A DNA stretch of 64,000 nt from Octopus vulgaris. Taxonomy: Eukaryota. Location: the NCBI GenBank assembly GCA_951406725.2, contig OX597831.1, positions 25,358,001 to 25,422,000 on the forward strand. Reading direction: 5' to 3'. The translations under genes were made by a program, and so were the position numbers. The notes beneath the pieces are model-generated. The model was not told where the DNA came from and made no database searches. It saw only the letters and a list, made by a program, of their open reading frames with translations. Of the stretch, positions 15,746 to 44,394 are shown piece after piece (the first letter of the stretch is position 1; each line of letters begins with the position of its first letter).

Positions 15746-15747
<2 letters not shown>

Positions 15748-16082
15748 GAAATATTAAAATTACTAAGTCTCTCTAAAAGAGATCACGGCAGCGTTCCTGG
15801 AAAATAATAGTTATTGCCATACTAATATGGCATTCTTATAAAAATAAGAATAAAGCTGTCCGCTTATTAGCTCCATGAGGCCATCGCCTTAAGTTAGCTA
15901 TTTGATACACAAACTGTATCCATATAACCTTCGAACAAGTGTGGAGCGACTGACCTCCCTTGTTCGAAGGTTATATGGATACAGTATCAAATAGCTAACT
16001 TAAGGCGATGGCCTCATGGAGCTAATAAGCGGACAGCTTTATTCTTATTTTTATAAGAATGCCATATTAGTATGGCGATAAC

Positions 16083-16088
<6 letters not shown>
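15746..16088. repeat. (TA)n-embedded structured repeat with snap-back palindrome
   Basis: Arms 15804-15939 and 15959-16088, 19-nt spacer, one 6-bp indel. Homologous single copy at 44179-44394. Confidence 0.85.
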
Positions 16089-16135
<47 letters not shown>

Positions 16136-16138
<3 letters not shown>

Positions 16139-16348
16139 GGTGGCCCAAATGTAGGTTTACAGTTATTCAACTATCTCTTTCGCTTTCATATATTAACAGT
16201 TTAGATCTTAAACATTAAAAAAATATGAAACCATTATTCTATGATAATTTAGTTAAATGTAAGATAGAAATTTAAATGCAATAAAATATTTTAACCAAAA
16301 TTTAAAGTGCCAACGTGATAACTGTAAACCTACTTTTGGACCACCCTA
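16136..16348. mobile_element. Tc1/mariner-superfamily MITE
   Basis: TA-CAGGGTGGCCCAAATGTAGGTTTACAGTTAT ... ATAACTGTAAACCTACTTTTGGACCACCCTA-TA. Confidence 0.85.
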
Positions 16349-16455
16349 TATATACATATGATTGCACACACACACACACACATACATATACATACACACT
16401 TATAAACTTACATATTTACATATGTATATGCATTACTTCTGAAGGTACAAACATC

Positions 16456-16489
<34 letters not shown>

Positions 16490-16567
16490 GTGGTAAGAAA
16501 ACAAATGTTAAAGAACTTATAGAATATATACTAAAATACTATGTCGTCATCAACATCATCATCATAG

Positions 16568-16611
<44 letters not shown>

Positions 16612-17055
16612 GTCATCGTCATCGTTTGCTTACAGGAAGTTCAACTGGGGCCAGGACTGATATAACCTATAAATACAAGGAAATTACATTCTCCTTAATG
16701 TTGATAGCATGCATGAATATACATACATATATATATATATAATATAAATATAACGTGTGTGTGTGTGTGTGTGGTGTGTGTATAGTTCGGTGTATAAGAG
16801 CAGCTTAAATGTAGGTAACACCGCAAGAAATCTGAGAATTGCATATCAAACATGTAAATATTTTGTTAACTTCCCACCGTCTTGAAATTCAATGTCAGAC
16901 ACACTTAACCACATTAAAGGGGGGAAAAAACGCAGATGAATATATACATGTGTGTGTGTGTGCATGTGCATGTTTGCATATATGATATTATGTATGTGTA
17001 AATTCATATATATATATATATATATACATATATACATATATATATATATATGTAC

Positions 17056-17136
<81 letters not shown>

Positions 17137-17592
17137 CATGTATGTATCTATGTATGTTTATATATCTATCCATTTATTTATGTCTTTATTTGTTGCTGTG
17201 TGTATGTGACTGTGTGCATTTATGTGTGTGTCTATATACAAGGGTTTAGCTAATGTTCAAGTACGTATCTTACCATACACATGCCAAGCAATGTTTACGA
17301 GTTTATACATTTCACCTATGTGGGTGTATAATTTTATGTAGGCTGCATGTATACAAAATTGTCTGTCTGACTGTCTGTCTGTCTGTATGTATGTATGTAT
17401 GTATGTATGCATGTACCTGAACACATACATATACAAGCTTGTACTTTGTCATTGAACATTGGGATCTGTAATTTTTGTCTTGTGTATGTGTACATACACA
17501 CAATTTTCTGTGTCTACATTTGTGTATATACACTTATTACTGATTAAATTCTTCCGTGTCTGTATATACACACATACAAGTATGCATATATA

Positions 17593-17640
<48 letters not shown>

Positions 17641-17907
17641 AGGGGGAATATTCCTTGTGTTGTATGTCTTGTACTCTGTTTTCTCGTTGTTTGAAAAATA
17701 GTTTGTTTCCATGTTTTTGTTCTTATGTTTTCGTTTCTCATTGTGTTCAACGTTTTTTTGATGTCCTGTACCCATATATGCATGTATATATACATATAGA
17801 TGTAGGTATGTACATATATGTATGCATATATATGCATATATTTATATACTATTTATATTATTATATGTTTGAATGCCACGCATCCTTTTCCAAGTAAATT
17901 TTATCTA

Positions 17908-17958
<51 letters not shown>

Positions 17959-18505
17959 GTGTGTGTGTGTGTGTGTGTATGTTTGTATGTAAAGAATTGT
18001 GTGTATGTGTGTTAATGCATATTGATATAAAACAAAGAAACTAGAGCCGTCTCTGGAAACATAGACAGTTGCTAAGAAGATTTCTATCACAGAAGCAGCT
18101 TATATAAATAGAGCTTTGCACTTGACTTGTTCCGTAATATCTTTGTTGTGCTGAAACATATGCCAGTGGGTGTATATAGTTTGGCACTTAGATTCACCCT
18201 CAATTTCTCACCCGGGCCATATGGTGCTAACAATACATCAGATAATATCCATGATAATAACATACATGTTTTGTATCATGTCTCTTCTCCTCCACACTTC
18301 TATCGCTCTCTGTCAAGGCAGAGTGCAAATATATATTTATTTACTACATGCGATATCATAAGATCTATATAACATGTATTTCCTTTAGCTTTGTGTTTGT
18401 TTTTTTTTATTTTATATTCAATTTTTTTCTTTTTTAACTTTTGAGAAACCTGGGTACATGTGTGTTTTTGAGTATGTGTGCTATACATGTGTGATTGTAT
18501 GTTTT

Positions 18506-18539
<34 letters not shown>

Positions 18540-18556
18540 TGTATGTGTGATACATA

Positions 18557-19503
18557 AAGGCACATGGTTCTGTGGTCAGAGCATCAGGATCACAATCATG
18601 ACATACTGAGTTCAATTCCCAGACTGGGCTATGTGTTGTGTTCTTGAGCAAGACACTCATGTTGGTGCCACATTAAAAGCACTGGTGCTGGTGCCACATA
18701 AAAAGCACTGACGCTGGTGCAAAATTAAAAGCACTGATACTGGTGCCACATAAAAATGCACTGATGCTGGTGCCACATAAAAATGCACTGATGCTGGTGC
18801 CACATTAAGAGTACTGGTGATGATGTCCCTTAAAAAGCACTCATGTTGGTGCCACATTAAAAGCACTGACGCTGGTGCAACGTTAAAAGCACTGATACTG
18901 GTGCCACATTAAAAGTACTGATGCTGGTGCCACATAAAAATGCACTGATGCTGGTGCCACATTAAGAGTACTGGTGATGATGTCCCTTAAAAAGCACTCA
19001 TGTTGGTGCCACATTAAAAGCACTGATACTGGTGCCACATTAAAAGCACTGATGCTGGTGCCACATAAAAATGCACTGATGCTGGTGCCACATTAAGAGT
19101 ACTGGTGATGATGTCCCTTAAAAAGCACTCATGTTGGTGCCACATTAAAAGCACTGGTGCTGGCACCACATTAAAAGCACTGGTGCTGGTACCACATTAA
19201 AAGCACTGGTGCTGGTGCCACATAAAATGCACTGATGCTGGTGCAACATAAAAATCACTGATGGTACCACATAAAATGCACTCATGCTTGTCCCACATTA
19301 AAAGCACTGGTGCTGGTTCCATATAAAATGCTCATGGTATACATTGTTAAGTGGTTGACATTAGGAAGAGCATCCAGCCATAGAAACCATATCCGAAAAG
19401 ACAGTGGGGTCTAGTGCAGCTCCCAACCTTATCAGCTCTGGTCAAACCATCCAACCCATGCCAGAAAGGAAAGCAGACGTTAAATGATAATGATAACAAT
19501 GAT
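18557..19503 (+). mobile_element. Chimeric SINE: family D tRNA head + ~26-bp minisatellite + family C tail
   Basis: Head 18557-18657 (GAGTTCAATTCC, GTTCTTGAGCAAGACACT); array of GGTGCCACATTAAAAGCACTGATGCT 18657-19340; tail GTGGTTG..ATTAGGAAG.GCATCCAGCC...GACGTTAAATGATAATG. Confidence 0.8.
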
Positions 19504-20867
19504 GTTTCATGAAGGCACTTTTGTGGATTTCATGCTCCCCGAACCTTCTGGAAATGGTCACTCACCACTGCTATAGAATCAAATGGTTCAGTATACCAGC
19601 CATGAAACAAAGAGAATAAAAAAATTTTCAAAGCAAATAAATAAATCTAACGTTCTGTTGTATTTTTCTCCATTATTACTTTTTCCCTAATCAGATTTCT
19701 GATTAATGAAATTATTCCAAGTCAATTAATTGTCATTTTATAAATAGAAGCTATTATGTTATTAATCTGAGATCCACAGAGTAACAACTAAACTTTATTG
19801 AATTGCTTTATGACATTTACAGTGTGTTGGCTGAGGTCACACAACACAAAAACCAGTGTCAGATTGGGAACTGTTGTTGTTGTAGTTGTTGTTTTGTATC
19901 AAGTCAATTCTAATTAAGTAGACCTATAATCAGCATCATATCAACCATGACCATCCCCACTTTCTGTATATCCAAAATTACACTGAGCAGTGTTTCCCTA
20001 AGTTTTCAATTCAGTGGTGAGGAAATTGAGCAAGATTTGACTGCTGTTCTTAGCATATCAAGCAACTGTTTAGAGGTTGGTTGACTTAGTTAATCATAGA
20101 TTTTTAATGAGATTCCCAGCATCTGTGAAGTGGGAGTTTCCACTTGATCTATTAACTTGCTAGAGATGGCCACCAAATCACACTTTGCTAGCTCAGAGAA
20201 AGGAAGGACACATCGAGTAATGTATCCATAGATTCATTATGCCTCAAAAACAGAGAATGATCAAAGCTGGAATGCCTTTCATCACAGATCTTCTTAATCT
20301 GGACTGATCTGGAGATAAAGAACACCAACAACTTTATCAAAGTTAATTTCCAATTTAGCTCTCTCTTTTTTTTTTATTCTTTAAAGTTGGAATGGCACAG
20401 AGTGAGGAGGCCCCTAATGATTTAGGACAGAGCCTTTACCAGAGGGACAAAATATTAAATTTTTTTGTCTTTCTAAGATCAAGAGACAATCCCAAAACTC
20501 AGATCCCTCAACTGTCCATACTCTACAAAACTATTCAATACCCACAAAACTTACATCTCCTTAGGAGGGTTGCTGGGGTAAAGTCCCCATGCACCTCTTC
20601 CATAGGGTCCTTCAAAAGCAGCCACCGTTAAATTTTCTGGTTTGATTCCCAAGTGCAGCCAACTATGATTATCGATATTACCCAATCATCTATTCCTGGT
20701 CTAACCCGAAGCTACCTGCCACTTTGCTTGGCTTAAAGAATCCATCTTAAAATTCTTTCCAGCAACATTGTAACCACATGTCTGTAGCTCCAGAGCTGTA
20801 GCTTCTCCAGGCAGATATATAGTAGCTTAATTTGGAGAGATTCCTTCAGCCTTGGGCTATATACCCT

Positions 20868-21241
20868 GTTTCGTGCCGATGGCACGTTAAAAACACCATT
20901 CAAGCGTGATCATTATCTGCATCGCCTTACTAGCACTTGTGCTAGGGGGACGTGAAAAAACATTCAAGCGAGGTCATTGCCAGTGCTGCTGGACTGGCTC
21001 CTATGCAGGTGACACATAAAAAGCACCATTTGAGTGTGGCCATTGCCAGTACCACCTAACTGGCCCTGGTGCTGGTGGCATGTAAAAGCACTCTCTACAC
21101 TCTCGGAATGGTTGGCGTTAGGAAGGGCTTCCAGCTGTAGAAACTCTGCCAGATCAGATTGGAGTCTGGTTTTCCAGACCTCAGTCAAATTGTTCAACCC
21201 ATGCTAGCATGGAAAGCGGACGTTAAACGATGATGATGATG
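20868..21241 (+). mobile_element. SINE-like family C
   Basis: Tandem units plus conserved 3' part and (GAT)n tail. Confidence 0.85.
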
Positions 21242-21469
21242 TTGATTGCCGCAGAAATCCCCCCAAGGAACCCTATTTTGGCCACTTTTAGTCATAGGTG
21301 TACTCTTTCAATAATTAACCAATATAGTAAAAATTATCCAATACCACATATATCTATGTATGATTTTTGCCAAAAGCAGATTTTATCTGGTTCAAGGATC
21401 TAAAAAACAATTTCTTCTTTTGTTTTATTATTTGCTGTGATACTTATGTTCCATGTTGATCTTCAGTTT

Positions 21470-21506
21470 ATATATTCTGTTTATTTTCTTTTACTTTCAG
21501 GTGAGT
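21470..21506 (+). promoter_or_regulatory. Candidate recursive splice site (3'SS abutting 5'SS)
   Basis: TTCTGTTTATTTTCTTTTACTTTCAG|GTGAGT: long pyrimidine tract, YAG at 21498-21500, immediately followed by a consensus donor. Confidence 0.5.
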
Positions 21507-21799
21507 GAAACATTTATTTTTTACCAGACATTTTGGTGAAACTGCTGAGTAAGCCAGGCCAGGTTTGACATATTTGATTTTTTAAACTTAAAATAACAAT
21601 GCCCTCAAAATATAACACAGAGAGTGCCAGCCTATTGGTTGAAGGGTCATCATTTTTGTACATTGCCACATGTAGTCAGTTACCTATCAAAAGTAGCTTA
21701 AAGATTTTCTCTGTTAAGTCTTCAGATTAAGTTTTCTGCTCATAAAAGGTTAAACAATGGAATCACTTTTGAAGGGTGGATCAGAAGTTATGGTTTTAC

Positions 21800-22093
21800 C
21801 AGCGCTGCCTTGACTGGCTTCTGTACCTGTTGCACGTAAAAAGCACCAACCGATCATGGCCGCTGCCAGCACCCCCACCCCCGGCACCTGTGCTGGTGGC
21901 ACGTAAAAAGCACCCACTACACACACAGAGTGGTTGGCATTAGGAAGGGCATCCAGCTGTAGAAACACTGCCCCAGATCAGACTGAAGCCTGGTGCAGCC
22001 TCCTCTGGCTTCCCAGACCCCGGTTGAACTGTCCGACCCATGCTAGCATGGAAAATAGACGTTAAACGATGATGATGATGATGATGATGATGA
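21800..22093 (+). mobile_element. SINE-like family C
   Basis: Conserved 3' part and long (GAT)n tail. Confidence 0.85.
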
Positions 22094-22577
22094 TAACACA
22101 ATTGGTGAATAATAAAACAATTGCTTAGAAAGGTGTTTCCGTAAGCTGTAGCAAAACAGATATCACAAGAGAATTTGTAAAGCTCTCGTTTTTGTTTCCG
22201 TTTATTTGCTAATAATTACATCCTTCGCATACACATGTGCACACACATACAAACTCAGATATGGCATTTGTAGTGACTTGACCAACTGTGAATCCCACTC
22301 AAATGCATTAATCAAATCTGCAGTTATGGTGGATGACACTTTCCAAATACTATATCATCATCATCATTTAAAATGTGTTTTCCATGCTGGCATAAGTTTG
22401 ACAGTTTGACTGAAGCTGGTAAGCCAAAGAGTTGCACCAGGTTCTGGTCATCTGTTATGGCTTGGTTTCGACAGCTGGATGCCATTCTTAATGCCAACCA
22501 CTTAACAGAGTATAGTAGATGTATTTTACATGACACTGGCATGGGTGTCCTTTATGCATCACTGGTATGGCTGCCAT

Positions 22578-22811
22578 AAGGCGGCGAGCTGTCAGAAACG
22601 TTAGCACACCAGGCGAAATGCTTAGCGGTATTTCATCTGCTGCTACGTTCTGAGTTCAAATTCCACTGAGGTCGACTTTGCCTTTCATCCTTTCGGGGTC
22701 AATTAAATAAGTACCAGTTACGCACAGGGATCGATATAATTGACTTAATCCGTTTGTCTGTCCTTGTTTGTCCCTTCTGTGTTTAGTTCCTTGTTGGTAG
22801 TAAAGAAATAG
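22578..22811 (+). mobile_element. SINE family B, full length, nested in a family C copy
   Basis: Near-consensus B; C-related sequence on both sides (22355-22575, 22812-22950). Confidence 0.85.
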
Positions 22812-23288
22812 GTTTGGGTGTCGTGTCACTAGCATGTGTGCCTTTTATGTGTTACAAGCACAGGTGCCCTTTTCCACATCACCAGCACTGGCCACAACCG
22901 CAATTTCACTTAGTTTGACATGTCTTCTCAGACACAGCAAATCACCCAAATCCAGAATCATGTTTGCAAAGTGGCTACATCTTGAAACGACTGCAGATTC
23001 TGTCCATTTACTGTTTAAACCTATCTTTCTTTAGTGCATCAAAGCTTGTAATATAGGCTCAATTTTGCAGGTCAAACCCAGGAGAAAACTTTTGAGACAT
23101 TCTTTTAAGGAAGAAAAGAAGTGTGCTGTATATGCCAGACTGAAGGCTAAGCAGGCCAAGACTTCAAAGTCCCTGTTAGCACTATTTTGTTAAAGAATAA
23201 TAAATATATACTCTACAAAGTGTATTGAGTAATCAGTCAGTTTAATGTAAAATTGCTGTTCATTATAACTCATTATAAAAGCAAATAT

Positions 23289-23327
<39 letters not shown>

Positions 23328-23859
23328 TATACATATGTACACACATATACATATATGTGTGTGTATATATATATAGAGAGAGAGAGAGACAGACAGATAG
23401 AAACACACATATATATAAATACACACACACGCATGCACACAGTTCTGTGTGTGTGAATGTCAAAGGTTTAAGTCTACGCTCCTACAATATGTGTGTTTTG
23501 CGTATAATTTTAATGATGGCAACATTGGAAAGTGAATGCAGATCTGGCATTTGGAATATTAATATTGTGAATGTTAAAGGGTTAAATCCATCATGCAATA
23601 TGAAAGCTATCCTGGTCTTTGTAAACTTAATGAGAAAAAGGACAGAAAAAAAAAAACCTTTAAATGTAAAAAATGCTGTAATTTCACCATTTCACTCTTC
23701 TGTTCATTACAGCCTGTTCACTAATTACATCTTGATAGATAAAACAATTGTCCAGAGATCATATAAATAGGGAAGCTCTTAGTGTATTGTTAATCAGAGA
23801 TCCTCAGAGTAATAACCAAAGTCTGTTGGATTTACTTCTATTATTCATTCGTTTTGGTT

Positions 23860-24420
23860 AAGGCATCTGGCAGAATAATTAGCATGACAGGCAGAATGCT
23901 TGCGAGCATTTCATCTGCCTTTATGTTCTGAGTTCAAATTCTGCCGAAGTTCATTTGCCCTTTATCCTTTCAGGGTCGATGAAATAAGTAGCATCTGAGT
24001 TCTGGTGGGGGTCAATGTAATTGACTAAACCCCTACCTCCAGCCTTCTTGACCTTGTCTCAAAATTTTAAGTTATTTTTGATTTATTTTGATTAAAGCAG
24101 CTGGCAGGATCATTAGAATGTCAAGCAAAATGCTTAATGGTATTTCATACCATTTCATACCAAAGGTGGCGAGCTGGCAGAGTCGTTAGCGAAATGCTCA
24201 GTGGTATTTCATCTGCCGCTACGTTCTGAGTTCAAATTCCGCCGAGGTTGACTTTGCCTTTCATCCTTTCGGGATCGATTAAATAAGTACCAGTTATGCA
24301 CTGGAGTCGATATAATTGACTTAATCCGTTTGTCTGTCCTTGTTTGTCCCCTCTGTGTTTAGCCCCTTGTTGGTAGTAAAGAAATAGGTGTTTCATCCGT
24401 CTCTACATTCTGAGTTCAAA
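23860..24420 (+). mobile_element. Cluster of nested SINE family B copies
   Basis: Diverged B at 23860-24070; young full B at 24163-24387 interrupts another B (24095-24150 / 24388-24425). Confidence 0.8.
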
Positions 24421-24794
24421 TTTGACTCTTCCCTCAATTGATTGTCATAAGACCAGTTAACAAAGGTTCTTCTGGGTGCCTGACTCAATGACCAGTAATT
24501 CGCATTCTTCTCTACTGTTCTACTCCCAATAACCAGTAGAGTTCTTTGGTGTGAATCTGTCTGAGATAAAGCATGCAGCAATACAGCTTCTGGCCATAAT
24601 TTTTCATAAACATTTTGACAGCAAATGTTTGATATGCACTGATCAAAACCAGAATGGTGACTATCAAAATACAATAAAACATGAGACACAATTTTCACCC
24701 ACCTTACTTCAAGAGTCCTATGTAAAGCATGGGAAGTTTTTCTCTGGCCCTCTGTACATAACAATTCATTAGCAAAAACAGGAGGTATAAGACA

Positions 24795-24960
24795 GCTTAA
24801 AAAGCTGTGGGTCCTTGAAACCCAGGCTATTGCAGTAACTGGTCCTGAAGCGCAATGGCATTGCTGGGATCTTTGGCACTATGCAGTGGCATCCTGTTCT
24901 GGCATTGGTGTAGCTTTCAATGCTGAAATTTGGCACACTTCCCTCCAGGATTTGTATATA
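24795..24960 (-). pseudogene. LINE ORF2 C-terminal fragment (same family as 34290-34735)
   Basis: ILEGSVPNFSIESYTNARTGCHCIVPKIPAMPLRFRTSYCNSLGFKDPQLF is nearly identical to the 34294 ORF. Confidence 0.75.
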
Positions 24961-25103
24961 GTGCATGTATAATTTGTATATATAATTTCTGTAATTAATA
25001 TTGACAAATAAGCAAACTAACGAATATTCCCAGTATTAAAAATGGTATTTGGTTAATGTTTGAAGAAACACAAAATTGTCAGCTGGCAATATTAATCAGA
25101 CAT

Positions 25104-25530
25104 TAAGGCGTTGAGCTGGCAGAATCATTAGCATGCTGTGAAGGCAGCAAGCTGGCAGAAACGTTAGCACGCCGGGCGAAATGCTTAGTGGTATTTCATC
25201 TGTCGCTACGTTCTGAGTTCAAATTCCGCCGAGGTCGACTTTGCCTTTCATTCTTTCGGGGTCGATTAAATAAGTACCAGTTACGCACTGGGGTTGATAT
25301 AATCGACTTAATCTGTTTGTCTGTCCTTGTTTGTCCTCTCTGTGTTTAGCCCCTTGTGGCCAATAAAGAAATAAGAATCTTTAGCATGCTGGGTGAAATG
25401 GTTAGCAGCATCTCATCTGTTTTTACATTCTGAGTTCAAATTTTGCTGAGGTCAACTTTGCTTTTCATCATTTTGGGGTCAAATGAAATAAGAACCAATA
25501 CTCAACTGGAGTCAATTTAATTGACTTAGC
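25104..25530 (+). mobile_element. SINE B (25141-25375) nested in SINE B with 18-bp TSD
   Basis: AGAATCATTAGCATGCTG (25121-25138) and AGAATCTTTAGCATGCTG (25374-25391). Confidence 0.85.
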
Positions 25531-26059
25531 CCATCAGACACTGATATTATCTGAAGGTTTGATGGCTGAGCTATTTTCCAGAAAAGAGCTATATAGAAGA
25601 CCTATTTTCGCACTTCTATATTTCTGTCCAAAATATCAATAAGGAATGTTTTCCCCTTTAGGAACAAGGCCCAAAATTTTGGGGGAGGGGGCCAGTTGAT
25701 TAGATTGATCCCAGTATGCAACTGGTACTTAATCCATCGACCCCGAAAGGATGAAAGGCAAAGCTGATCCTGGCAGAACTCGAACTCAGAATGTAAAAGA
25801 CAGACAAAATATTGGTTGTGATGACGTGTGTTCCAGTTGATTCAATCAATGGAACAGCTTGCTTGTGAAATTAACACGCAAGTAGATGAGCACTCCACAG
25901 GTACATGAACACTTAAAATGCAGTAATACCTCACTTTATGAGGACCTTTACTAGACTCTGGGTTTAAAAGTTTATTTTATAATTTTTCAAGCACAAGATC
26001 CAAATTTTGAACAAAGTGCAAAAGTTTCTACTACCATAACAAATTCTTACGTGGGTTAC

Positions 26060-26584
26060 TACTCTTTTACTTGTTTCAGTCATTTGACTGTGGCCATGTT
26101 GGAGCACAACCTTTAGTCAAACAAATCGACCCCAGGACTTATTCTTTGTAAGCCTAGTACTTATTCTATTGGTCTCTCTTGCTGAACTGCTAAGTTACAA
26201 GGATGTAAACACACCAGCATCAGTTGTCAAGCAATGTTGTGGTGGGGGGACGAACACAAACATATACATATACATATATACGACGGGCCTCTTTCAGACA
26301 CACAAACATATACACACACATACATACATATATCTATATTATTATGGCTGCCCCCTTGTTATCGAGTATGGCCATTGCACGAAGCTTAACTGTTACTGGT
26401 GCAATCACAGCACCAGTAACAGTTAAGCTTCGTGCAATGGCCATACTCGATAATGACACACACATATATACGATGAGCTTCTTTCAGTTTCCGTCTACCA
26501 AATCCACTCACAAGGCTTTGGTTGGTCCGAGGCTATAGTAGGAAGACTGAACCCGGAACCATGTGATTGGTAAGCAAGCTACTT
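26060..26584 (-). mobile_element. SINE family A with internal duplication and foreign palindrome insert
   Basis: Family A consensus interrupted at about 26340-26456. Confidence 0.85.
26359..26453. repeat. Perfect 44-bp palindrome with 7-nt loop
   Basis: TTATCGAGTATGGCCATTGCACGAAGCTTAACTGTTACTGGTGC-AATCACA-exact reverse complement. Confidence 0.95.
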
Positions 26585-26753
26585 GAGAAATTTATAAACC
26601 AAAAATAAAAAAGAGCTTCTCCTAAGCAAACAACTCTAGGCTTGTTTTTTATAAAGAAATCTACAGCTCCATCTATAAGTGCTTGTAAATCAGAAATTGC
26701 ATCTACAAATGATGGTATGTGCTAGTCTAATGTGAGTGAAAGTGATTCAGAAG

Positions 26754-26754
<1 letters not shown>

Positions 26755-26795
<41 letters not shown>

Positions 26796-27345
26796 GTTTA
26801 ACGTCCGCTTTCCATGCTAGCATGGGTTGGACGGTTCAACTGGGGTCTGGTGAGCCCGAAGGCTGCACCAGGCCAGTCAGATCTGGCAGTGTTTCTACAG
26901 CTGGATGCCCTTCCTAACGCCAACCACTCCGAGAGTGTAGTGGGTGATTTTATGTGCCACCGACACAGGTGCCAGACGAGGCTGGCGAATGGCCACGCTT
27001 GGATAGTGTTTTTTATGTGCCACTGACACAGGTGCCAGATGAGGCTGGCGAATGGCCACGCTTGGATAGTGTTTTTTATGTGCCACTGACACAGGTGCCA
27101 GACGAGGCTGGCGGACGGCCACGCTCGGATGGTGTTTCTTATGTGCCACTGACACAGGTGCCAGACGAGGCTGGCGAACGGCCACAATCGGATGGTGTTT
27201 GTTACGTGCCCACAGCACGGAGGCCAGTCGATGCAGTACTGGCTACGGCCACGTTCGGATGGTTTTCTTATGTGCCACCGGCACTGGTACCACAAAGATA
27301 CAAATTCCATTGATGTTCATCTATTTTGATTTGGTTTGATTTTTT
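26755..27345 (-). mobile_element. SINE-like family C with 63-bp tandem array
   Basis: ATGTGCCAC recurs at 26952, 27015, 27078 and 27141 (63-bp period); (GAT)n tail at 26755-26795. Confidence 0.9.
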
Positions 27346-28835: not shown

Positions 28836-28975
28836 TCATCATCATCATCATTTAACGTCCGCTTTCCATGCTAGCATGGGTTGGACGGTTCAACTGGTGT
28901 CTGGGGAGCCCGAAGGCTGCACCAGGCCAGTCAGATCTGGCAGTGTTTCTACAGCTGGATGCCCTTCCTAACGCC
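28836..28975 (-). mobile_element. SINE-like family C, 3' part
   Basis: Nearly identical to 26790-26920. Confidence 0.85.
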
Positions 28976-28989
28976 ATATATATTTATAT

Positions 28990-29296: not shown

Positions 29297-29383
<87 letters not shown>

Positions 29384-32749: not shown

Positions 32750-33005
32750 ACACACTATCAAATACACCAGACACATAGACACACTTAGACACACACACAC
32801 ACATATGCACACTATCAAATACACCAGACACATAGACACACATACACACTTACACACACACACATATACACACTATCAAATACACCAGACACATAGACAC
32901 ACATACACACTTACACTTACATATACACATTATCAAATACACCAGACACATAAACACACATACACACTTACACACACACACACATGTATACACAATACAC
33001 ACACG
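32750..33005. repeat. Minisatellite, ~58-bp unit x4
   Basis: CACACTATCAAATACACCAGACACATAGACACAC repeated four times within CA-rich sequence. Confidence 0.85.
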
Positions 33006-33297
33006 TGAAGTGTTTTTCTCTTATTACATCCCTCATTTGGAAATTAGTAAAAACCCCTCAGAGTGAATTTATTTATTTATTTATATATTTGTATTGATTT
33101 TTTTGTTGTATCGATTTTTTTGTTGTATACATTTTTAATTTGAGTTTTGCACAGTTTACTCTTAAATGAATGAGATGGATTGTTCTTGAGGACATGTTTA
33201 TCAATTTGATAACATCAACATCACCTGACCATTGTCAACCCACAAAATTTTCATCATTTTCATCACCATAATTTCTACTGCCTCCACTGCTATCATT

Positions 33298-33337
<40 letters not shown>

Positions 33338-33848
33338 CTATGTTACACTACAACTATCACGATAACATTTATCTGTAAGTATTTATACCATTGATAAGTT
33401 TTATTTCAAGATTTCTTGCCAATAGAGAAAGAGCCGGTTTCTAACCTAGATTCAAGGCTCCTTGAATCTAGAATTTCAATATCCTGGAATTTGAATATCA
33501 GCAACAGGATATTTTTGTTTGTTTCCATGTATATATGTATGTATATGTGCAGATTTGCATGTTTGGCTTTTAGTATTCTCATGCATATAGTTACATATCT
33601 TGACATGCTCATGTATGTATACATGCATGTCTCTTTTTATCTATCTATCTATCTATCTATCTATACATATATATATATATATATGTATATATGTACATAA
33701 ATATATATAAATATAAATATATATATACATATATATATATATGTATATAAATGTATATAAATATAAATATATATATACATATATATATATGTATATAAAT
33801 ATATATAAATATAAATATATATATACATATATATAAATATAAATATAT

Positions 33849-33911
<63 letters not shown>

Positions 33912-33914
<3 letters not shown>

Positions 33915-34281
33915 ATATATAAACGGCAGTTTGTCTGTGCGTGTTTCTGTGTGTCTGTTTGCTTGTACCCTCACTCTGACCACAGCTTTCAACCGATTCT
34001 GATGAAACTTGACACACACATAGCCCAATGTCATAATTCAAAACTAACGCAGCGAAAATTTTGAAAAGTTCCCCCAGTTCAGAAAAAGATCGATAAATTC
34101 GACATGGGGTCGACAATCAGAAACACAAACCACAGATGGTGTAGGGGACGCAACTCGGCCTTTTTAACTGTCAAAAAAAAATTTACCATCATTTTTTTCC
34201 CATTTTTTGGCTATAACTCTCTAAAAGTGCTTTATAGTTATTTCCCTTACAAACCCGAGCAACGCCGGGCAATACTGCTAG
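33912..34281 (+). mobile_element. Non-autonomous Helitron
   Basis: A|TCTATATATAAA start; CCCGAGCAACGCCGGG hairpin (34254-34269) then AATACTGCTAG|T. Canonical A|T insertion, no TSD. Confidence 0.85.
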
Positions 34282-34289
34282 TATATATA

Positions 34290-34735
34290 TACAATGCTAA
34301 ATTTTGACATTGTAAGCTACACCAATGCTAGAACGGGACGACACTGCCTGGTGCCAAAGATCCCAGCAATGCCATCACGCTTCAGGACCAGCTTCTGCAA
34401 CAGCCTGGGTTTCAAGGGCCCACAGCTTTTTAATATTCTCCCAAAGAGTCTGAGGAACTTGCACAAAGTAGATGTAGCGGTTTGTAAATCAAAGCTGGAC
34501 ATCTTCCTGTCAAGAGTCCCAGAAGCTGGTCCTGAAGCGTGATGGCATTGCTGGGATCTTTGGCACCAGGCAGTGTCATCCCGGCAAGCAGTGCAAATGT
34601 GAGTAGCTATATCAAACTCCATTCTTCACCAAGTGCCACATATTAGACGAGGTTCTTCGTAATAACAGTGTAGCACAAAACAGCAGTGCATCAGCATGGC
34701 CACAGCTCTGAGCTGAAACTAGAGGAAAAAAAAAT
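34290..34735 (+). mobile_element. 5'-truncated LINE 3' end (CR1/L2 group) with internal inverted replacement
   Basis: SLGFKGPQLFNILPKSLRN...KSKLDIFLSRVP resembles the post-RT C-terminus of these LINEs; 3' UTR ends CAGCTCTGAGCTGAAACTAGAGG(A)n. Confidence 0.75.
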
Positions 34736-34767
34736 ATGTATATAAATATATATAAATATAATATATA

Positions 34768-34803
<36 letters not shown>

Positions 34804-35845
34804 CATGCATACATATATATATAAGTATGGAACTTATTGACTCCTTTTCTACATAATGATATTGGCTACTTCTCAGTTGACATTACAGTCTCAATTCCTT
34901 TCTTGCTAAAATTTTGGTATTCATTTTACCTTAAAGTTTCTCAGTACCAGGCTCTATGCCTGAAGATGAAATTTCCTCTCTAATTCTTTGGAAGATCCAG
35001 CCATGAGAAAAACGATACTGACATATAGAAGTTAAACATAGACAGCTAAACTTAAACTTCTCTGTAATGGTCTACAAAATTATCATAAACAGCAATTGGT
35101 TAAGAAACAAGCCTTGATGAACGCCTATCTATCTGTTAATCCCTTCACTTAACTCATTACACGCGCTCTCTCTTTCTCTCTCTCACTCTCTCTCCGTTGA
35201 ACACAAAACCTTTACATGGCGTGCACAGCTTTTGAAGCCATTCATCTACATCGGATTTTCTTAGTGACTACCAGCTTAGAAAAACTAAGGATTTTGACAA
35301 AAAAAAATGAAAGAAAAACAGAAAGAATATAGCTCACTTTTTGACAAAACTGAATTAAAGATTATATCAGGAACATATGGTCAAGATAATCCTATAATAA
35401 TTGATAATCAAACTGTCACAGTGGTGAATGAATTTCTATCTTAGAAGTATTATAACAAATCAATATGATGACAGCAAAAAGATAAAAAGAGATATTTGTT
35501 ATAGCAATATATAGCTGCTCTTCTTAAAACCATATTTGTGAAAATCCATCAATAAGTAAAAAGGCCAGGTTGAAATTCCTGCACACTTTGATATTTCAAA
35601 TATCAATCTATGGATTTGAATGTTGGGTTAAAAAAAAATATATATATACAGCTGTTTGAAAAGAGAATTTTCTAATTTTGGTGTTGTAAGTAAGAGAAAG
35701 CCAAGATTTTGCTGGACAGACAAAAAAAAAAAAAAGGACAAATCACTTTGTGCTGACCGATTTGGAATTGAGTAGAGACTTGTAAAAAGAACTGGATAAA
35801 CAAAAATCTTAGACATCTTAAGTTTGAGCATTGCTATAAAGGTAA

Positions 35846-36315
35846 GTGGAGGTGCATGGCTTTGTGGTTAGGGTGTCAGCACCATGATCGTAAAATTGTG
35901 GTTTCAATTCCTGGACTGGGAGACGTGTTGCTCCAGTCCACTCAGCTGGCAAAAATGAGTAACACTGCAATGGACTGGGGTCCTGTCCAACTGGAGAACA
36001 CATACGCCATAGAAACCGGGCCCATGAGCCTGGCTAGACTTTAAAAAGGCACATTTGTGGGAACGCGTAGCTTAGTAGTTAGGGTGTAAGCATCATGATC
36101 GTAAGATTGTGGTTTCAATTCCTGGACCGGGCGACGCGTTGTGTTCTTGAGCAAAACACTTCATTTCATGTTGCTCCAGTCCACTCACCTGGCAAAAATG
36201 AGTAGTCTTGTGATGGACCAGCATCTCATCCAGCTGGGTAACACATACGCCATAGAAACCGGGAAACCAGGCCCATGAGCCTAGCTAGGCTTTGAAAGGG
36301 CGCATTTATTTTTTA
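35846..36315 (+). mobile_element. Two head-to-tail family D tRNA-SINEs
   Basis: Units 35846-36056 (internally deleted) and 36057-36315; box A/B, GTTCTTGAGCAAAACACTT core in the second unit, GGCCCATGAGCCT.GCTAG.CTTT tail. Confidence 0.85.
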
Positions 36316-37275
36316 TTTATTATTGCTATAAAGGAAGATGACATACAATAATTGTTGGGTGTTGGAAAAAGTTCAAGAGGAAGACATATAACAAAAAACT
36401 GTTGTGATTTTGGAGATAACAGAATTGAAGATGTCACAATTTATAAAAACAGCTGAAAATAGAGACAAATGGAGAAGAAATATTAACTGAGCTACACACA
36501 CACTCCTAGGGTTGGTGGTTGCAAAATGATACCACCACTACCACCACCACCACCACCACCACCACTACCACCACCATCACCACCACCACCACCACCACCA
36601 CCACTACCACTGCCATAGCCGACGACACCAATGACAACAACAACATATCAATTCAGGTATTGATTACTATAGTTGATGGGTCTTTCTGGTTTTTTAAGGC
36701 ACACCGGCTGATTGGTCGCACTTCAATTTTGGCAGCCCAATTCTTGAACAACCACTTGCCAATACTCGAAGCCTTGGTCTTTTGTTTATAAGAGCCAGGT
36801 TGATTTTCTTTGGATATTTATTTTGTAAAGAAAGATAGCCTCATGAACTAAAGAATACATTGATTTAAAGCATTTTTTTCTTTCTTAGTAGCTGTAATGA
36901 TAATCATGATAATATAAATAACTATAATTATGATTGTATGGTATCATAATGTGCATATATGTATATGTGTGTATATATACATTTACAATTATATATATAT
37001 ATAGATAATATCGTGATTTTGTTTATTTATTCACACACATCTGCTTGTATGTGTGTGTGAATAAATGTATGTATGTATGTATATATATAAGTGTGTGCAT
37101 ATACATATGTATGTATATATATATTTCCTGAGCATCCAATAATACTATATTTGTTCCACGTCCTCGCATTGTTGTGTTTTTTTGTGCTTTCTTGTTTGGA
37201 TTAACTTTATATATCTGTATATATATATGTATGTATGTATATGTATGTAAGTTTATATATGTATATATATGTATG

Positions 37276-37312
<37 letters not shown>

Positions 37313-37343
37313 GTATATATATATATATATATATATACATACA

Positions 37344-37378
<35 letters not shown>

Positions 37379-37981
37379 GTGTGCATGTGCATGAGTGTGT
37401 GTGTATATATATGTGTGTGTGTTTTTGTGTGTTTGTGTGTACATGTGTATGTATATAGTATATCATGAAGAAAATCTTCCAGAAGCTTTGTCTTTCATTT
37501 TGTCATCACTTTCTTCATTGTCAATGCTGTCATCGCCAGTCGTTTGCTATCTCCAGCATTTTTCTTATCATCATCATCATCATCTTCAGCCCTAGCAGCA
37601 GCAGCAGCAACAATGTTGTACTTCTCTTTCTCCTTCCTTTCAGACTCTCTAGTTTCCTTCTTATATATCACCATCGACTTCATACACCTCTCCTTATCAT
37701 CATCATCATCATCATCCCCTCTACACAACTACCACCACCACCACCACCATCAACACCATCATCACTATCATTACCACCACCATCACCACAAAACCGACAA
37801 TACTACAATAACAACCATTATACCTTTGCTATGACTGCCCAGATATATTGATGGCTTACAGCTTCTTCTCATTTTCTGTGTTAGAATCATTTCAAGAAGT
37901 TGTTGGCCTTCTTTTCTTCCTATTCTTCTTCATAGTATTATTATTATTAGTTATATTTTTATTATTATGATACTTGTAGTA

Positions 37982-38369
37982 GGCACAGGAGTGGCTGTGT
38001 GGTAAGTAGCTTGCTTACCAACCACATGGTTCCGGGTTCAGTCCCACTGCGTGGCACCTTGGGCAAGTGTCTTCTACTATAGCCTCGAGCCGACCAAAGC
38101 CTTGTTAGTGAATTTGGTAGACGGAAACTGAAAGAAGCCCATCATATATATGTATATATATGTGTATGTGTGTGTTTGTGTGTCTGTGTTTGTCCCCCCA
38201 ACATCGCTTGACAACCAATGCTGGTGTGTTTACGTCCCCGTAACTTAGCGGTTTGGCAAAAGAGACTGATAGAATAAGTACTAGGTTTACAAAGAATAAG
38301 TCATGGGGTCAATGTGCTCGACTAAAGGCGGTGCTCCAGCATGGCCGCAGTCAAATGACTGAAACAAGT
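37982..38369 (+). mobile_element. SINE family A, full length (reference copy)
   Basis: GGCACAGGAGTGGCTGTGTGGTAAG...GGGTTCAGTCCC...GCATGGCCGCAGTCAAATGACTGAAACAAG. Confidence 0.9.
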
Positions 38370-38461
38370 TGGAAGAGCTGTAGTTTGCTATTTCATCATG
38401 TCCTTTTATGAGCTGAGTTCAAATCCCATCATAATTCTTCTTCTCTGGCTTTCAGAGAACA

Positions 38462-38795
38462 ATAGGGTAAAGACCACCTCCTCTGGTCGTGAATTACTAT
38501 GGAATTGCACTTAGAAAGCCATCCTCCGAGGCACAAGTCTGGACGAGGTTGTTTATGAAAGACCAGCAGTCAACCATGCATACCAGCCTCCCCTCTCTAT
38601 GCTCCCAATGTTATCCAAGGGAAAGGCAAATACAGCTTGGCACTGTTGACATAACTCATTTCTACAACTGAGTGAACTGGAGTAATGTGAAATAAGTGTC
38701 TTGCTCAAGAACACAACACCTCAACCCAGTCCAGTAGCCGAACTCACTGCCTCATGATTATGAGCCCAACACTCTAACCACTGAGCCATGCACCT
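38462..38795 (-). mobile_element. tRNA-derived SINE, family D-related
   Basis: Head GGTGCATGGCTCAGTGGTTAG and TTCTTGAGCAAGACACTT core; homologous to 51940-52211 and 5700-5890. Confidence 0.8.
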
Positions 38796-38825
38796 TTGCA
38801 CAATAAATATCAGTGAAATACTGGT

Positions 38826-39037
38826 TTCACATTTTGGCACAAGACCAGCAATTGTAGGGTAGTGCTTAAGTTAATTACATCAAATCCAGAGTTCAACTGG
38901 TACTCATTTTAGTGAGCCCAAAAGGATGAAACACAAAGTCAACCTTGATGGAATTTGAACTCAGAACTTAAAGACAGGTGAAATCCTGCTATGCATTTTG
39001 CCAAGGGTGTTGACCATTCTCCCTGCTTACTGCCTTA
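38826..39037 (-). mobile_element. SINE family B, diverged
   Basis: B central domain recognisable. Confidence 0.75.
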
Positions 39038-39224
39038 ATATTAGCAAAATATTCAGAGTTGATGTAATCAGCAATCCGTTCCTTCACCTTATCTACCGGG
39101 GTTGATATAACCAACTGTACCCTTTCCTGCTTCAAATGCTTTTGTTGATATAATTAGATGTACCCTAATCCAACCCAAATGTAATATCCAGCCAATCATT
39201 TTTGTTTGACTATTGAGACCTATT

Positions 39225-39597
39225 GAGTCAAGTACATCAACGTCAAAATAAAAATCAAATGGAAATTGTAGTTGTAATACCCATGCCAGTGGCACGTAAA
39301 AAGCCCCCATCCGAATGTGGCCGATGCCAGCACCACCTTGCTTGGCTTCCATGCTGGTGGCATGTAAAAAGCACCAACCGATAGTGGATGTTGCCAGCCT
39401 CATCTGGCCCCTGTGCTGCTGTCACGTAAAAAGCATCCACTACACTCACAGAGTGGTTGGTGTTAGAAAGGGCATCCAGCTGTAGAAACACTGCCAGATC
39501 AGACTGGAGCCTGGTGCAGCCTCCTGGCTTCCCAGACCCTGGTCAAACTGTCCAACCCTTGCTAGCATGGAAAACGGACGTTAAACAATGATGATGA
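39225..39597 (+). mobile_element. SINE-like family C
   Basis: Tandem units, conserved 3' part, (GAT)n tail. Confidence 0.85.
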
Positions 39598-39614
39598 TTG
39601 TTACCATTTTGCAT

Positions 39615-40003
39615 CTTTAACTTGTTTTAATCATTAGACTGCAGTCATACTGGGATGCCAATTTGAAGAATCTTTTGCTTAACTGAATCAACCCCAGTAC
39701 TAATTTCTCTGTAAGCCTGGTACTTATTTGATCAGTCGATTTTGCTAAACTGTTAAGTTATGGGGATGTAAACACACCAACACCAGTTATCAAGTAGCAG
39801 TAGGATATAAACACAGACACAAAGATGGACACACACACACACACATCAGGTTTCTCTCAGTTTCCATCTATGAAATCCACTCACAAATCTTTGGACGACC
39901 CAATGCTATAATAGAAGACACTTGCCCAAGGCACCATGTAGTGGGATTGAACACAGAATCCTGTTGTTGGGAAGCAAGTTTCTTACTGCACACCCAAACC
40001 TGA
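39615..40003 (-). mobile_element. SINE family A, older copy
   Basis: Diverged match to the family A consensus. Confidence 0.75.
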
Positions 40004-41014
40004 GCAATTAATGTCTTAATTTTATTGTTTAACACCAGGTCATCTCCTATTTTGTAGAACTACAATCACAAATTTTCCAACCATAACCATCTCGGAAGTT
40101 TTGTACAGCTGGATTTTTGGTGTACAATGTGTCCCTTTATATTTAAGACATCAAAATATGATACAAAATTTAGATTCAGCTGCTTCATCTAGCAGATGGA
40201 CAGGCTGCAGAGGGACATTTTCATTGGCTCTCAGTAGCAATGGCGTTATCTTGTAGAAATCAAACAAAACCAAGCTACCAGTAAATTCCATTGATTGCAC
40301 TTTTAACAGAGTAGGGAATTCAATGACAGATGATATTTCAAAGCCACATTCAATTACGTCAAGTATATGTTTGTTTGTTGCTGTTGTTGTTGTTGTTGTG
40401 TTGCATTTCAAATGTCATCATTCTGTCCACTCCTCCTTCTCCTCTTCCTCATCATCATCAACATCATCATCATCATCAATTGCTCTCTCTCCTCCATCAC
40501 ATCACCCTTCCATCTCTCCATCATTCTCCTGTTTCCTTGGTTCTCAGTTGCGAGCAAATTGCTGTCCAAGTAATGTTTGATTCCACCATAAACTCCTTCT
40601 GATGAAAATCTTTCATCAATCAAACTCGTTAGCATATGTGCGTTGATTCATTACCTCCTGGCAAGTAAACGAAGTAAAGTGATGAAAACAGCATCAAAAT
40701 TACTGCTTTTTTTTTTCATTATCAAACTGAAAACTTAGCAAATGAAAAAAAAAATATATTGCATATTTATAACTACTTGAATGTTACAAGGTGAGGCCAT
40801 GGGGCACCATCAGCTACATAACAAGGGGCAACCTATACACACATGATAATACACACATATACACATACACATACATATATTTGTGTTACATTTGTATGCA
40901 TATAATACATATATTTATATATATGTACATGCATATATATGTGTGTATATATATATATGTACAGATATATAAATATATATATATATATATAGTATCAGTG
41001 TCTCTGTATACATC

Positions 41015-41880
41015 TGGCTGTGTGGTAAGAAGCATGCTTCTCAACCACATTGTTCTTGGTTCAGTCCCAACTGTGTTACACCTTGTTCAAGAGTCTTCTA
41101 TAGCCTCGGGTCAACCAAAGCCTTGTGAGTGGATTTGGTAGATGGAAACTGAAAGTAGCCTATTGTACATCATCATCGTTTAACGTCCGTTCTCCATGCT
41201 AGCATGGGTTGGACGGTTTGACCAGGGATCTGGGAAGCCAGAAGGCTGCACCAGGCTCCGGTCTTATCTGGCAATGTTTCTACAGCTGGATGCCCTTCCT
41301 AACGCCATGCATATGTATATATCTAGGTGTGTGTGTCTTTGTGTCTGTGTTAGTCCCTGGTTCACTGCTGGACAAAGAGTGTTGGTGTGTTTATGTCCCC
41401 ATAACCTCTCTTACTGGGTAACCATGTACTTCCTCTATAGCAAAATAACCTGTTTCTGGTTCTCCATCTCTCTCTCTTACACTCTAACCTTGCATCACCT
41501 GACACAAGATCCCCTCTTCAAATGCCCCCACCTCTCTTAATATTTCTTGTCTTGCAAGTTACTTGGTGACTCTGCTGGTGCTGGTGCTATGTAAAAAGCA
41601 TACAGTCTACACTGTAAAGTGGTAGGCATTTGGAAGGGCATCAAGCTGTAAAAAATCATGCCAAAACTAACATTGCCTGTGCTAGTGCCATCTAAAAAGC
41701 AGTGAGTCAACTCTGGAGAGTGGTTGATGTCAGGAAGGGCATCCAGCCATAAAAAACCTGCCAAAACAGACACAATAGCCTGGGGCAGTCTTCTACCTGG
41801 CTGGTTCTTGTCAACTGTCCTACACATACATGCACGGAAAATGGATTGTAAATGACGATGATGATGATGATGATGATGAT
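41015..41880. mobile_element. Nested SINE cluster (A interrupted by C; further C copy)
   Basis: A at 41015-41160 and 41330-41405; C (minus) at 41170-41308; C (plus) at 41520-41880. Confidence 0.75.
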
Positions 41881-42003
41881 GTAGTAGTAGTAGTAGTAGT
41901 AGTAGTAGTATATGTGTGTCTATGTATTAAGATAGAGGTTCATTGAAAAACCAGTTAGTTTAGCTGTCTGTTTATATATCTCAATATATGATAACACAGT
42001 TTG

Positions 42004-42528
42004 TAAGATGGTGAGCTGGCAAAATTGTTTATACACTGGAAAAAATTCTTAGTGACTTTATATTATGTGTTCAAATTCTGCTGAGGTCAACTTTGCCTTT
42101 CATCCTTTTCAGGGTCGATAAAATAAGTACCAGTTGTACACTGGGGTTGATGTAATTGACCTATTCCTTTCACTGAACTTGCTAGCCTTGTAGCGAAATT
42201 TAAAACCTATACATGATAATACATGTATAGGTTTTAAATTTCGCTACAAGGCTAGCAAATAAGTGGAGGGAATAGGTCAATTACGTCAGCCCCAGTGTAC
42301 AACTGGTACTTGTAAGGAGGTGAGCTGGCAGAATTGTTAGCAAACCAGACAAGGTGCTTAGCAACATTTCATCTGCCTTTGTGTTCTGGCTTCAAATTCT
42401 TCCAAGTTTGACTTTGTTTCTCATTCTTTCAGGGTCAGTCAAATAAGTACCAGTTGAAGACTAGGGTCAATGTAACTGATTTACCCACTCCTTTAAATTT
42501 GCTGGCCTTGTGCCAAAAGTAGAAACCA
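42004..42528 (+). mobile_element. Two SINE B copies around an inverted duplication of a B tail
   Basis: B at 42004-42207 and 42314-42528; palindrome arms 42125-42215 and 42222-42311. Confidence 0.85.
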
Positions 42529-44058
42529 ATATATGAGAACATAGCTTATGGATACACAATACATCGGAACAACTGTGTGAAGTTTCTGTGATAGAAAAAA
42601 GCTATACAACTCACACAGTTACAATAATCAGTTTGACTGGCTGGCAACAGGTTCCCGCTAACTATATATTTGAATTGTCATTAGTTGAGAATACAACTGT
42701 GGACAATGTAATTAGAAAAATTTGTTTAATGAAAGCTTGTTCAACAAGAAGATATCTTTCCATTGTCGGTGTAGATTAGAATATGATAAGTTGACGAATC
42801 TATGTGTCTATATTTTATATATTTCATATTGACATAGTCAGTGTTAAGGAAGTATGTACACAGATTGTATGTTTGTGTGTGCGTGTGTGTATGTGCATGT
42901 GTGTGCATGTCTGTGTGCATATATGTATGTATATGTGTGTGTGTCTTTGTGTATACAATATGTATGTATATGTGTGTGTATATATATGATATACATGTGT
43001 GTGTGAGTGTATATATGTTTGTGTATATATATACGTATGTATGTATATGTCTGCATATATATATAGATAGATAGATACATATGTATGTATAGATATATAT
43101 ATATGTGTATATATAAGTGTATGTGTGCATGTATATATGTATATACATGTGTGTGTACATATATATGTATGCATGTATGTGTGTAGATGTATATATATAT
43201 GTGTGTGTGCATATTTATGTATATGTTTATGTGTTTGTATATGAGTGTATATATATGTATATACATACATACACATGCACATGTATATATATATGAACGA
43301 ATGCATAAGTATATAAACATCTTTGCACATGCTTGAATGTATATATATAGTTACACTGTCACATACAAAAATGCATATGCTCACACATGTGCACATACAT
43401 ACACGCATGCATGCACACATATACACACACATTTCATATCAAATATTAGAAGATTAATTTTGGGTGTGGCATTTAAATATTTGTTATTCTTGTATTGATT
43501 AAATTGTACATTTACGAACTCTATATACATTTAGACATTCAACACATTTATCCAAATCTATATATTTATGCAAACATAATGGATTATGTATAGCTAAACA
43601 TTCAGCCCATACACTTAGGAGGTATTTTTCAACAAACTCTTATGTATATAAATTATGTCTGATATGTATGTCAGCATGTAAACATGTTCTATATTAAAAA
43701 GACTAACAGATTTATGCAACACACAATACACACACACACACACACACATATATATGTCATCAGTAAATCATAAATCCAAAAGAGAAGCACTCCCTTAGTT
43801 ATAGAGCAATAATTAAATATAATTATGGTTGGTCTATGGGTTTCATGTCCACAAAGGGCTGAGCTTTATGGTGTTTCTTCAGGGTCCTAAGAAACTCTGT
43901 AAAGCAAGGCTAAGCACTTCATGGATGTGAAATCCAGGCTAACCCCCAGAGACCAGCTATAACTGTCTTTTTGCCATGATAGATCACTAGCCACTATATC
44001 TTTTTCTATTTCTATTTTCTATTTTTTCTATTTTCTGTCCCTGTTTATTTCTATGTTC

Positions 44059-44094
44059 CTTTTTGTTGAAGAGCATAGGCTCGAAACGTAAAAG
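44059..44094 (+). ncRNA. Minimal hammerhead variant
   Basis: CTTT-TTGTTGA-A-GAGC-ATAG-GCTC-GAAAC-GTA-AAAG. Stems I and II and ACGT palindromic stem III are present; the core has two changes; the module ends in (TA)n at 44163. Confidence 0.6.
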
Positions 44095-44178
44095 ACTTTC
44101 TCACTTCCCAAGCGTTAAACTAACACATCTGTTTGTTCTTTTGTTTTTTTGTAAATTATCACTATATATATATATATA

Positions 44179-44394
44179 TAGAAATGTTATAATTTCTAAA
44201 CCTCTCTGAAGGAGAGATACAGCAGCAGTACTGGGTATTAATATTTATTGCCAAACTAACGTGGTAGTCCAGAGAAATAGGACGAATGCAGCTGTTGGTT
44301 AGCTTCAAGAGGCGATTGCTTCTAGCTAGCTATATGATGCACAAATCTGCATCCATAAACCTTCGAACAAGGGAGGTCACCAACTTCCCCTTGC
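44179..44394 (+). repeat. Structured (TA)n-anchored repeat, copy 2
   Basis: Aligns with 15746-15958, with compensatory changes. Confidence 0.75.

Follow-up and report, generated by a model that had tools for sequence, protein, structure and literature searches.

The two copies and their limits

The stretch analysed here, called the window, comprises 64,000 nt of the Octopus vulgaris genome (NCBI GenBank assembly GCA_951406725.2, contig OX597831.1, positions 25,358,001 to 25,422,000 of the forward strand). It contains two copies, A and B, of a short structured repeat, each of which starts at a (TA)n tract (at 15746 and 44179, respectively). Positions are those of the window; its plus strand is referred to as the reader's strand, and its minus strand is the sense of the predicted hammerhead ribozyme described below. 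With a probability of roughly 0.75, both copies represent truncated insertions of a hammerhead-bearing non-coding Penelope-type repeat, whose covarying helices likely form an RNA handle for docking a reverse transcriptase (RT)/endonuclease.

Pairwise alignment of the two copies gives 75% identity across 197 nt (E ~3e-28). This agrees with the first-pass annotation of this DNA, which had described two diverged copies of one repeat beginning at TA tracts; the tracts and the helix motifs that it quoted are all in place. The boundaries that it had drawn require revision. The homology between the copies stops at unit position 194 (15939 in A and 44371 in B), the inverted second arm of copy A had been overlooked, and copy B continues to about 44436. 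What was taken for a "terminal hairpin" in copy A is the place where its two arms meet, and it is not homologous to the hairpin of copy B.

Copy A is a fold-back between two target tracts, (TA)20 on its left (15705 to 15744) and (TA)25 on its right (16086 to 16135). Its first arm (15746 to 15939, inferred RNA sense on the minus strand) corresponds to unit positions 1-194 of the young family A and starts at the outer fixed end, T1. The second arm (15938 to 16088, plus strand) is inverted, runs from unit position 215 to 59 and ends at the inner fixed end, T2. The arms overlap by 2 nt at their junction, and the second has a 7-nt deletion. The first arm matches the 362-nt unit of locus L033 at about 99% identity, where L-numbers denote genomic loci fetched from the same 2.8-Gb genome by similarity searches.

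Copy B follows a (TA)8 tract (44163 to 44178, read from the sequence) and extends from 44179 to 44436 with its inferred RNA sense on the minus strand. It covers unit positions 1 to about 260 of the old family B, to the consensus of which it is 92% identical. It starts at T1 and is truncated on the 5' side of the RNA.

The full element and its families

What the first-pass annotation described corresponds to the antisense reading of the 3' half of a non-coding unit of 340-362 nt, which occurs as monomers, head-to-tail arrays and fold-backs at (TA)n. The family A unit measures 362 nt in longer copies, arrays and inversions. Profile searches of the fetched loci led to the characterisation of seven families, A-G, with units of 340-362 nt and a mean identity of 61% over the structured domain, along with further, more diverged single copies. 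Genome searches gave at least 856 first-look candidates for copy A and at least 2406 for copy B, with 40 of each scored, so that these figures are not copy numbers. Families A and E are young: their copies are about 99-100% identical, and their arrays reach about 12 and 17 units, respectively. The longest ATG frame in trimers of the units spans 21-63 codons in families A-E. Where longer copies had been expected to lead to a coding region, the unit leads into further units, and no coding frame is linked to it in the same sense in the fetched loci.

An Rfam scan, proposed by the first-pass annotation, returned no match at gathering score in the window. The only hits on L033, both by chance at a loose E-value, were RT-2 (19 of 40 bits) and, over the TA tract, a microRNA model; the hammerhead went undetected. 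A reading of the hairpin loops as selenocysteine insertion sequence (SECIS)-like or splice signals was weighed by eye only and dropped. Contigs of four sequencing runs, the kind of which was guessed with RNA and DNA undistinguished, covered 24-26 of 29 unit bins; in run X10 a single record of 392 nt goes round the unit one time, as would be expected of a circle and of a uniform tandem array alike. Neither observation was used as evidence.

Loci L243 and L244 (G000:C16 and C2) carry near-identical 360-nt units of family E in arrays of up to about 17, making this family the best candidate for a currently active one. At L225 (1501-1994) the unit changes from family F to family D inside the hammerhead region, a switch that suggests template switching between families.

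The predicted hammerhead and the sense of the RNA

A type I hammerhead pattern was found by a pattern script in six of the seven family consensuses on the minus sense and in none of the seven on the reader's strand. The hammerhead of family G, missed by the script, was seen by eye. The pattern lies about 40 nt beyond the end of the repeat as first noted, on the opposite strand and at the tip of a long rod. Stem I has 6 bp, stem II has 3-4 bp, and stem III is palindromic. The core is of the U3-A8 type in families A, B and D, and has C at position 4 in family E, as in a coding Neptune of the same genome. Both the U3-A8 variant and a minimal hammerhead with a palindromic stem III have been described for Penelope-like elements (PMC4209133; here and below, statements from the literature refer to those parts of each source that were available). 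Among long copies, 35 of 38 in family A and 57 of 66 in family E retain the whole pattern. The first-pass annotation recognised no hammerhead. This holds for the span that it covered, but in the full unit a predicted one lies shortly outside that span, on the opposite strand.

In the window the ribozyme survives in part. It is lost from copy A, the arms of which end before it, the second halting about 19 nt short of the cut site. Copy B retains a decayed 3' half (44405 to 44435, minus strand, read against the family B motif): the 3' half of the core, the palindromic stem III and the 3' strand of stem I are kept, stem II is decayed and the 5' part of the core is lost. The predicted cut would fall between 44411 and 44410.

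Further observations concern the sense of the RNA. The stem I wobble that distinguishes subfamilies A1 and A2 falls on the minus strand. When the full unit is folded as a circle, the hammerhead sense is more stable by 7-24 kcal/mol in four of six families. Independently of the ribozyme, the fixed ends of the insertions abut (TA)n and the far ends are ragged, which identifies the hammerhead sense as the template. The ribozyme pattern and this polarity of the ends both point to the minus strand of the window as the putative template RNA and speak against the plus strand, which the first-pass annotation had taken as the working one.

The insertion footprint

The ends of 200 deduplicated insertions were classified after removal of 34 duplicates and eight edge-cut clusters. 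Two fixed ends were found, 45-58 nt apart: T1 at about unit position 1 and T2 at about 46-62. In copy A this 58-nt "tail" (15746 to 15803, minus strand), delimited by the end positions and the deduplicated end classes, includes hairpins H1 and H2 and one strand of helix P3. While 112 of the 200 insertions run in one direction only, 88 are two-armed. Among the latter, 74 join T1 to T2, two join T1 to T1, none joins T2 to T2 and 12 have an unclassified end, so that T1/T2 accounts for 74 of the 76 classifiable cases. The junctions of the two arms mostly share a few bases, and both arm lengths and junctions differ from copy to copy.

In the young families, 56 of 59 T1 ends and 47 of 50 T2 ends (103 of 109 fixed ends) lie within 20 nt of (TA)n, as do two of ten far breaks. 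In the old families the corresponding figures are 47 of 108 for T1, 19 of 44 for T2 and nine of 102 for far breaks; the window background is 3.8%. Partial tandems, an inverted truncated arm, ragged 5' ends and a tail at one end only are all present. Penelope-like elements have a tail at one end and a tandem or inverted arrangement (PMC8557442). In vitro, a Penelope-like protein cleaves both strands of AT-rich DNA and extends them, and the tail is delimited by two internal sites at which reverse transcription starts (PMC11167929). The combination of one fixed end of each kind, fold-backs and (TA)n targets is thus the "tail" footprint of Penelope-like elements and identifies the unit as a non-autonomous Penelope-type element. 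What the first-pass annotation had left as an unidentified RNA would very probably be such an element, an animal non-LTR (long terminal repeat) retrozyme with a predicted ribozyme.

Covariation of the RNA domain

Inward of T1, the unit folds into a series of helices, the coordinates of which in copy A (all on the minus strand) were obtained from the fold and pair counts. The multibranch domain (15786 to 15862) is closed by helix P3 (15786-15792 with 15855-15862) and contains the inner hairpins P3b (15816-15831) and P3c (15832-15851); T2 lies in its unpaired linker. It is followed, between 15868 and 15920, by the two-part hairpin H4 (15868-15900) and the hairpin H5 (15904-15920). H1 and H2 were left out of the covariation scoring, the sequence alignment being out of register there.

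RNAalifold, applied to 22 copies of these families, gives 26 pairs, 18 of which are changed on both sides, with 91% of cells paired; the structure was derived from the same alignment on which the pairs were scored. None of 500 shuffles reached this percentage, and slid controls gave 24-44%. Relatedness of the copies was taken into account in 200 simulations, in which the ancestral sequence evolved neutrally along the family tree and was then refolded. More than one Watson-Crick type occurs in 15 of the 32 observed pairs; the simulations average 0.4 such pairs and never exceed four. The covariation proposed as a check on the two copies is thus present in the deeper alignment. Together with the insertion census it agrees with the original proposal that a TA-targeting mobile element carries a multi-helix structure under selection.

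Across families that are only about 61% alike, the helices keep their order and size, the linker with T2 stays unpaired, some of the loop bases are conserved, and the positions of T1 and T2 are constant relative to the fold. As T1 immediately follows the last hairpins and the linker left unpaired in the multibranch contains T2, the domain can be read as a docking or positioning element. It is somewhat favoured that it represents the docking site for a Penelope-type reverse transcriptase.

Coding Penelope-like elements as possible partners

A very abundant coding element of the Neptune type is present in the same genome, with an RT, a CxxxxCxxC linker and, at its C-terminus, a GIY-YIG domain. 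Its footprint is the same in kind, with ends 46 nt apart; among 26 loci, 14 are two-armed, nine of them T1/T2 and five T1/T1. The 45-nt tail and the C4 hammerhead core of family E resemble those of this Neptune.

Canonical Penelope-like elements have one frame. In the abundant Neptune, which has a unit of 4271 bp, the RT/GIY-YIG frame of 775 codons shares 91 nt with a 454-codon frame, the overlap being in the -1 frame (L108 6340-9935, G000:C8; also L106, L107 and L111). The overlap contains seven T followed by A, a run that resembles a ribosomal frameshift site. Another Penelope-like family, about 31% like the abundant Neptune, has an 833-codon open frame and ends at (TA)n (L275 1151-3649, G000:C6).

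Three leads to a coding partner did not hold up. The RT/GIY-YIG fragment beside family A in L043 is a separate insertion of the coding Neptune with an unrelated end. The older Neptune family of locus L166 has no homologous end in 30 loci, among the matches listed, and none was found for the third Penelope-like family (L035/L275). A degenerate pattern search for a partner gave no matches, but it was poorly designed. L166 itself (266-1819, G000:C55) contains family C units fused without a TA tract to a truncated frame of the older Neptune in the opposite sense. This chimera is a single case that hints at possible mobilisation in trans.

A model of insertion

By combining these observations, it is possible to outline how the units might spread. 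Tandem transcripts in the minus sense of the window would be cut by paired hammerheads into monomers, which may circularise, as in mussel and axolotl, where retrozyme RNA is circular (PMC7229834). A GIY-YIG/RT protein supplied by a coding Penelope-like element would then bind the folded 3' domain and nick both strands of a (TA)n tract. Synthesis of complementary DNA (cDNA) would start at T1 on one side and at T2 on the other, using short TA complementarity. Where the two cDNAs met at a few shared bases, a fold-back such as copy A would result. Running round a circle or along tandem RNA would produce arrays, and an early stop would leave a copy like B. More tentatively, and with rather less confidence than the docking function as such, the domain may be pictured as a portable module that docks a dimer of a telomerase-related RT and places its two subunits at T1 and T2, respectively; each insertion would thereby be primed on both target strands.

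Alternative explanations

Several observations weigh against the proposed identity and docking function. T1 ends are over-represented in the census, as its loci were selected for their similarity to queries that begin at T1. The hammerhead pattern is intact in just one of 19 long B copies. In family B the full unit folds equally well on either strand, and in F the reader's strand has a slight advantage. In families E and G the domain has no advantage over shuffles in folding (z 0.0 to -1.2), the aligned helices being nevertheless retained, and one of five covariation measures, the count of further pair types, is not above shuffles (482 of 500 as high). No coding element with this domain was found in the fetched loci, a smaller set than the whole genome. 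The coding Neptune has an end sequence without relation to the units, and T1/T1 makes up a larger share of its insertions (5 of 14, against 2 of 76 for the units; Fisher p = 0.0008), so that it is a candidate and not an established partner. Selection might instead have acted on the helices to keep a circular RNA stable or to protect it from nucleases, with the start sites set by local TA-rich sequence alone: animal retrozyme circles are strongly self-paired (PMC7229834), both ends are TA-rich, and complementarity alone could prime. This is unlikely, since the conserved helix order and size, T2 linker and loop bases exceed what generic pairing needs, and the end positions are fixed relative to the fold. 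It is quite improbable that the units are broken-off terminal repeats (pLTRs) of unseen coding Penelope-like elements and never were an independent RNA. Truncated ends are the commonest form of Penelope-like elements (PMC8557442), and in L166 a family C unit is joined directly to a Neptune frame; however, a complete unit continues into a further copy of itself, as many as about 17 times over, and among the Penelope-like frames of the fetched loci none lies upstream of a unit in the same sense, the two parts of L166 being in opposite senses.

The fold could also work on the reader's strand, as first-strand cDNA or as antisense RNA in a viroid-like replication through both polarities. Both window copies do fold better on the plus strand (z -3.6 for A and -3.2 for B, with none of 200 shuffles as good) than on the minus strand (-2.5 and -1.4), and the family A consensus behaves likewise (-4.8 versus -3.0). 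The argument of the first-pass annotation that the G.U wobbles fall on the plus strand is correct for these two copies; it fails across the seven consensuses, where strand-neutral helices have five G.U cells on the reader's strand versus ten on the opposite one, a bias that is not significant (p = 0.30). The bases responsible in copy B vary within its family, the state at 44320 occurring in a minority of six of 47 copies and that at 44265 in 18 of 47. The domain is therefore strand-neutral: the plus-strand argument does not generalise, nor does the domain prove the minus-strand assignment. As the ribozyme and the A1/A2 stem I wobble lie on the other strand and the plus strand has no ribozyme pattern, a function on the reader's strand is highly improbable. 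Finally, next to no probability attaches to a miniature inverted-repeat transposable element (MITE), that is, a DNA-transposon derivative that targets TA and is bounded by long terminal inverted repeats. Copy A, folded back between two TA tracts, has this appearance, but the ends differ by the fixed tail, arm lengths and junctions vary, more than half of the insertions run in one direction, and tandem arrays occur; a MITE with identical terminal inverted repeats of fixed length is effectively refuted by the end census. The Penelope-type repeat with a probable docking domain remains the preferred explanation.

Other features of the window

Immediately right of copy A, TA tracts enclose a short element (16125-16359) whose 42-bp terminal inverted repeats are 90% alike; it resembles a MITE of the Tc1/mariner type. 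A near-perfect palindrome of about 1 kb (48380-49400), unrelated to the units, has AT-rich arms of about 500 bp with TAA/TAT microsatellite and a short loop near 48870. At 56110-56571, a 153-codon frame resembles, by eye, the C-terminal part of the RT of a long interspersed nuclear element (LINE).

Relation to known elements and implications

The class of element to which the units belong is already published. Like metazoan non-LTR retrozymes (PMC7229834; bioRxiv 10.64898/2026.07.22.740005), they are non-coding, arranged in tandem within the size range of 150-450 bp (350-390 bp in mussel), low in GC and equipped with a type I hammerhead, and Penelope-like machinery has been proposed as the mover of such units. 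Cleavage and circular RNA were demonstrated for the published retrozymes, whereas the hammerhead described here is known from its sequence pattern. In the available parts of those reports no cephalopod family, two-ended fold-back footprint or covarying domain outside the ribozyme is described. The literature search, made outside Repbase, Dfam and the supplements of the papers, which may list families, likewise gave no cephalopod retrozyme or comparable conserved domain.

With Neptune-type elements and their pLTRs (PMC8557442; PMC4209133) the units share partial tandems, an inverted truncated second arm, a tail at one end, the (TA)n preference and the minimal U3-A8 hammerhead with its palindromic stem III. 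They differ in lacking an attached RT/GIY-YIG frame, in the length of the tail (45-58 versus 30-40 nt) and in a near-strict T1/T2 arrangement. A functional parallel is with PAc Poseidon of the green anole, for which the tail is set by two internal RT starts, cutting and extension take place on both target strands, and an RNA stretch of about 170 nt around the start sites is required in vitro (PMC11167929). In the available account that stretch lies in the coding frame and the start sites show no strand difference; in the units it is non-coding and covarying, and one site of each kind is used.

The contribution of these copies is a conserved, covarying RNA domain spanning both reverse-transcription start sites in at least seven families. 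It lends genomic support to the movement of retrozymes by Penelope machinery. Penelope-like enzymes are the closest retroelement relatives of telomerase, and how they choose their template and why the tail is at one end are open questions (PMC8557442; PMC11167929). The domain supplies a ready mutational map for the question of template recognition. If a dimer does dock in the manner suggested, the fold kept by many families of parasites despite the change of their sequences would represent a natural covariation map of template recognition.

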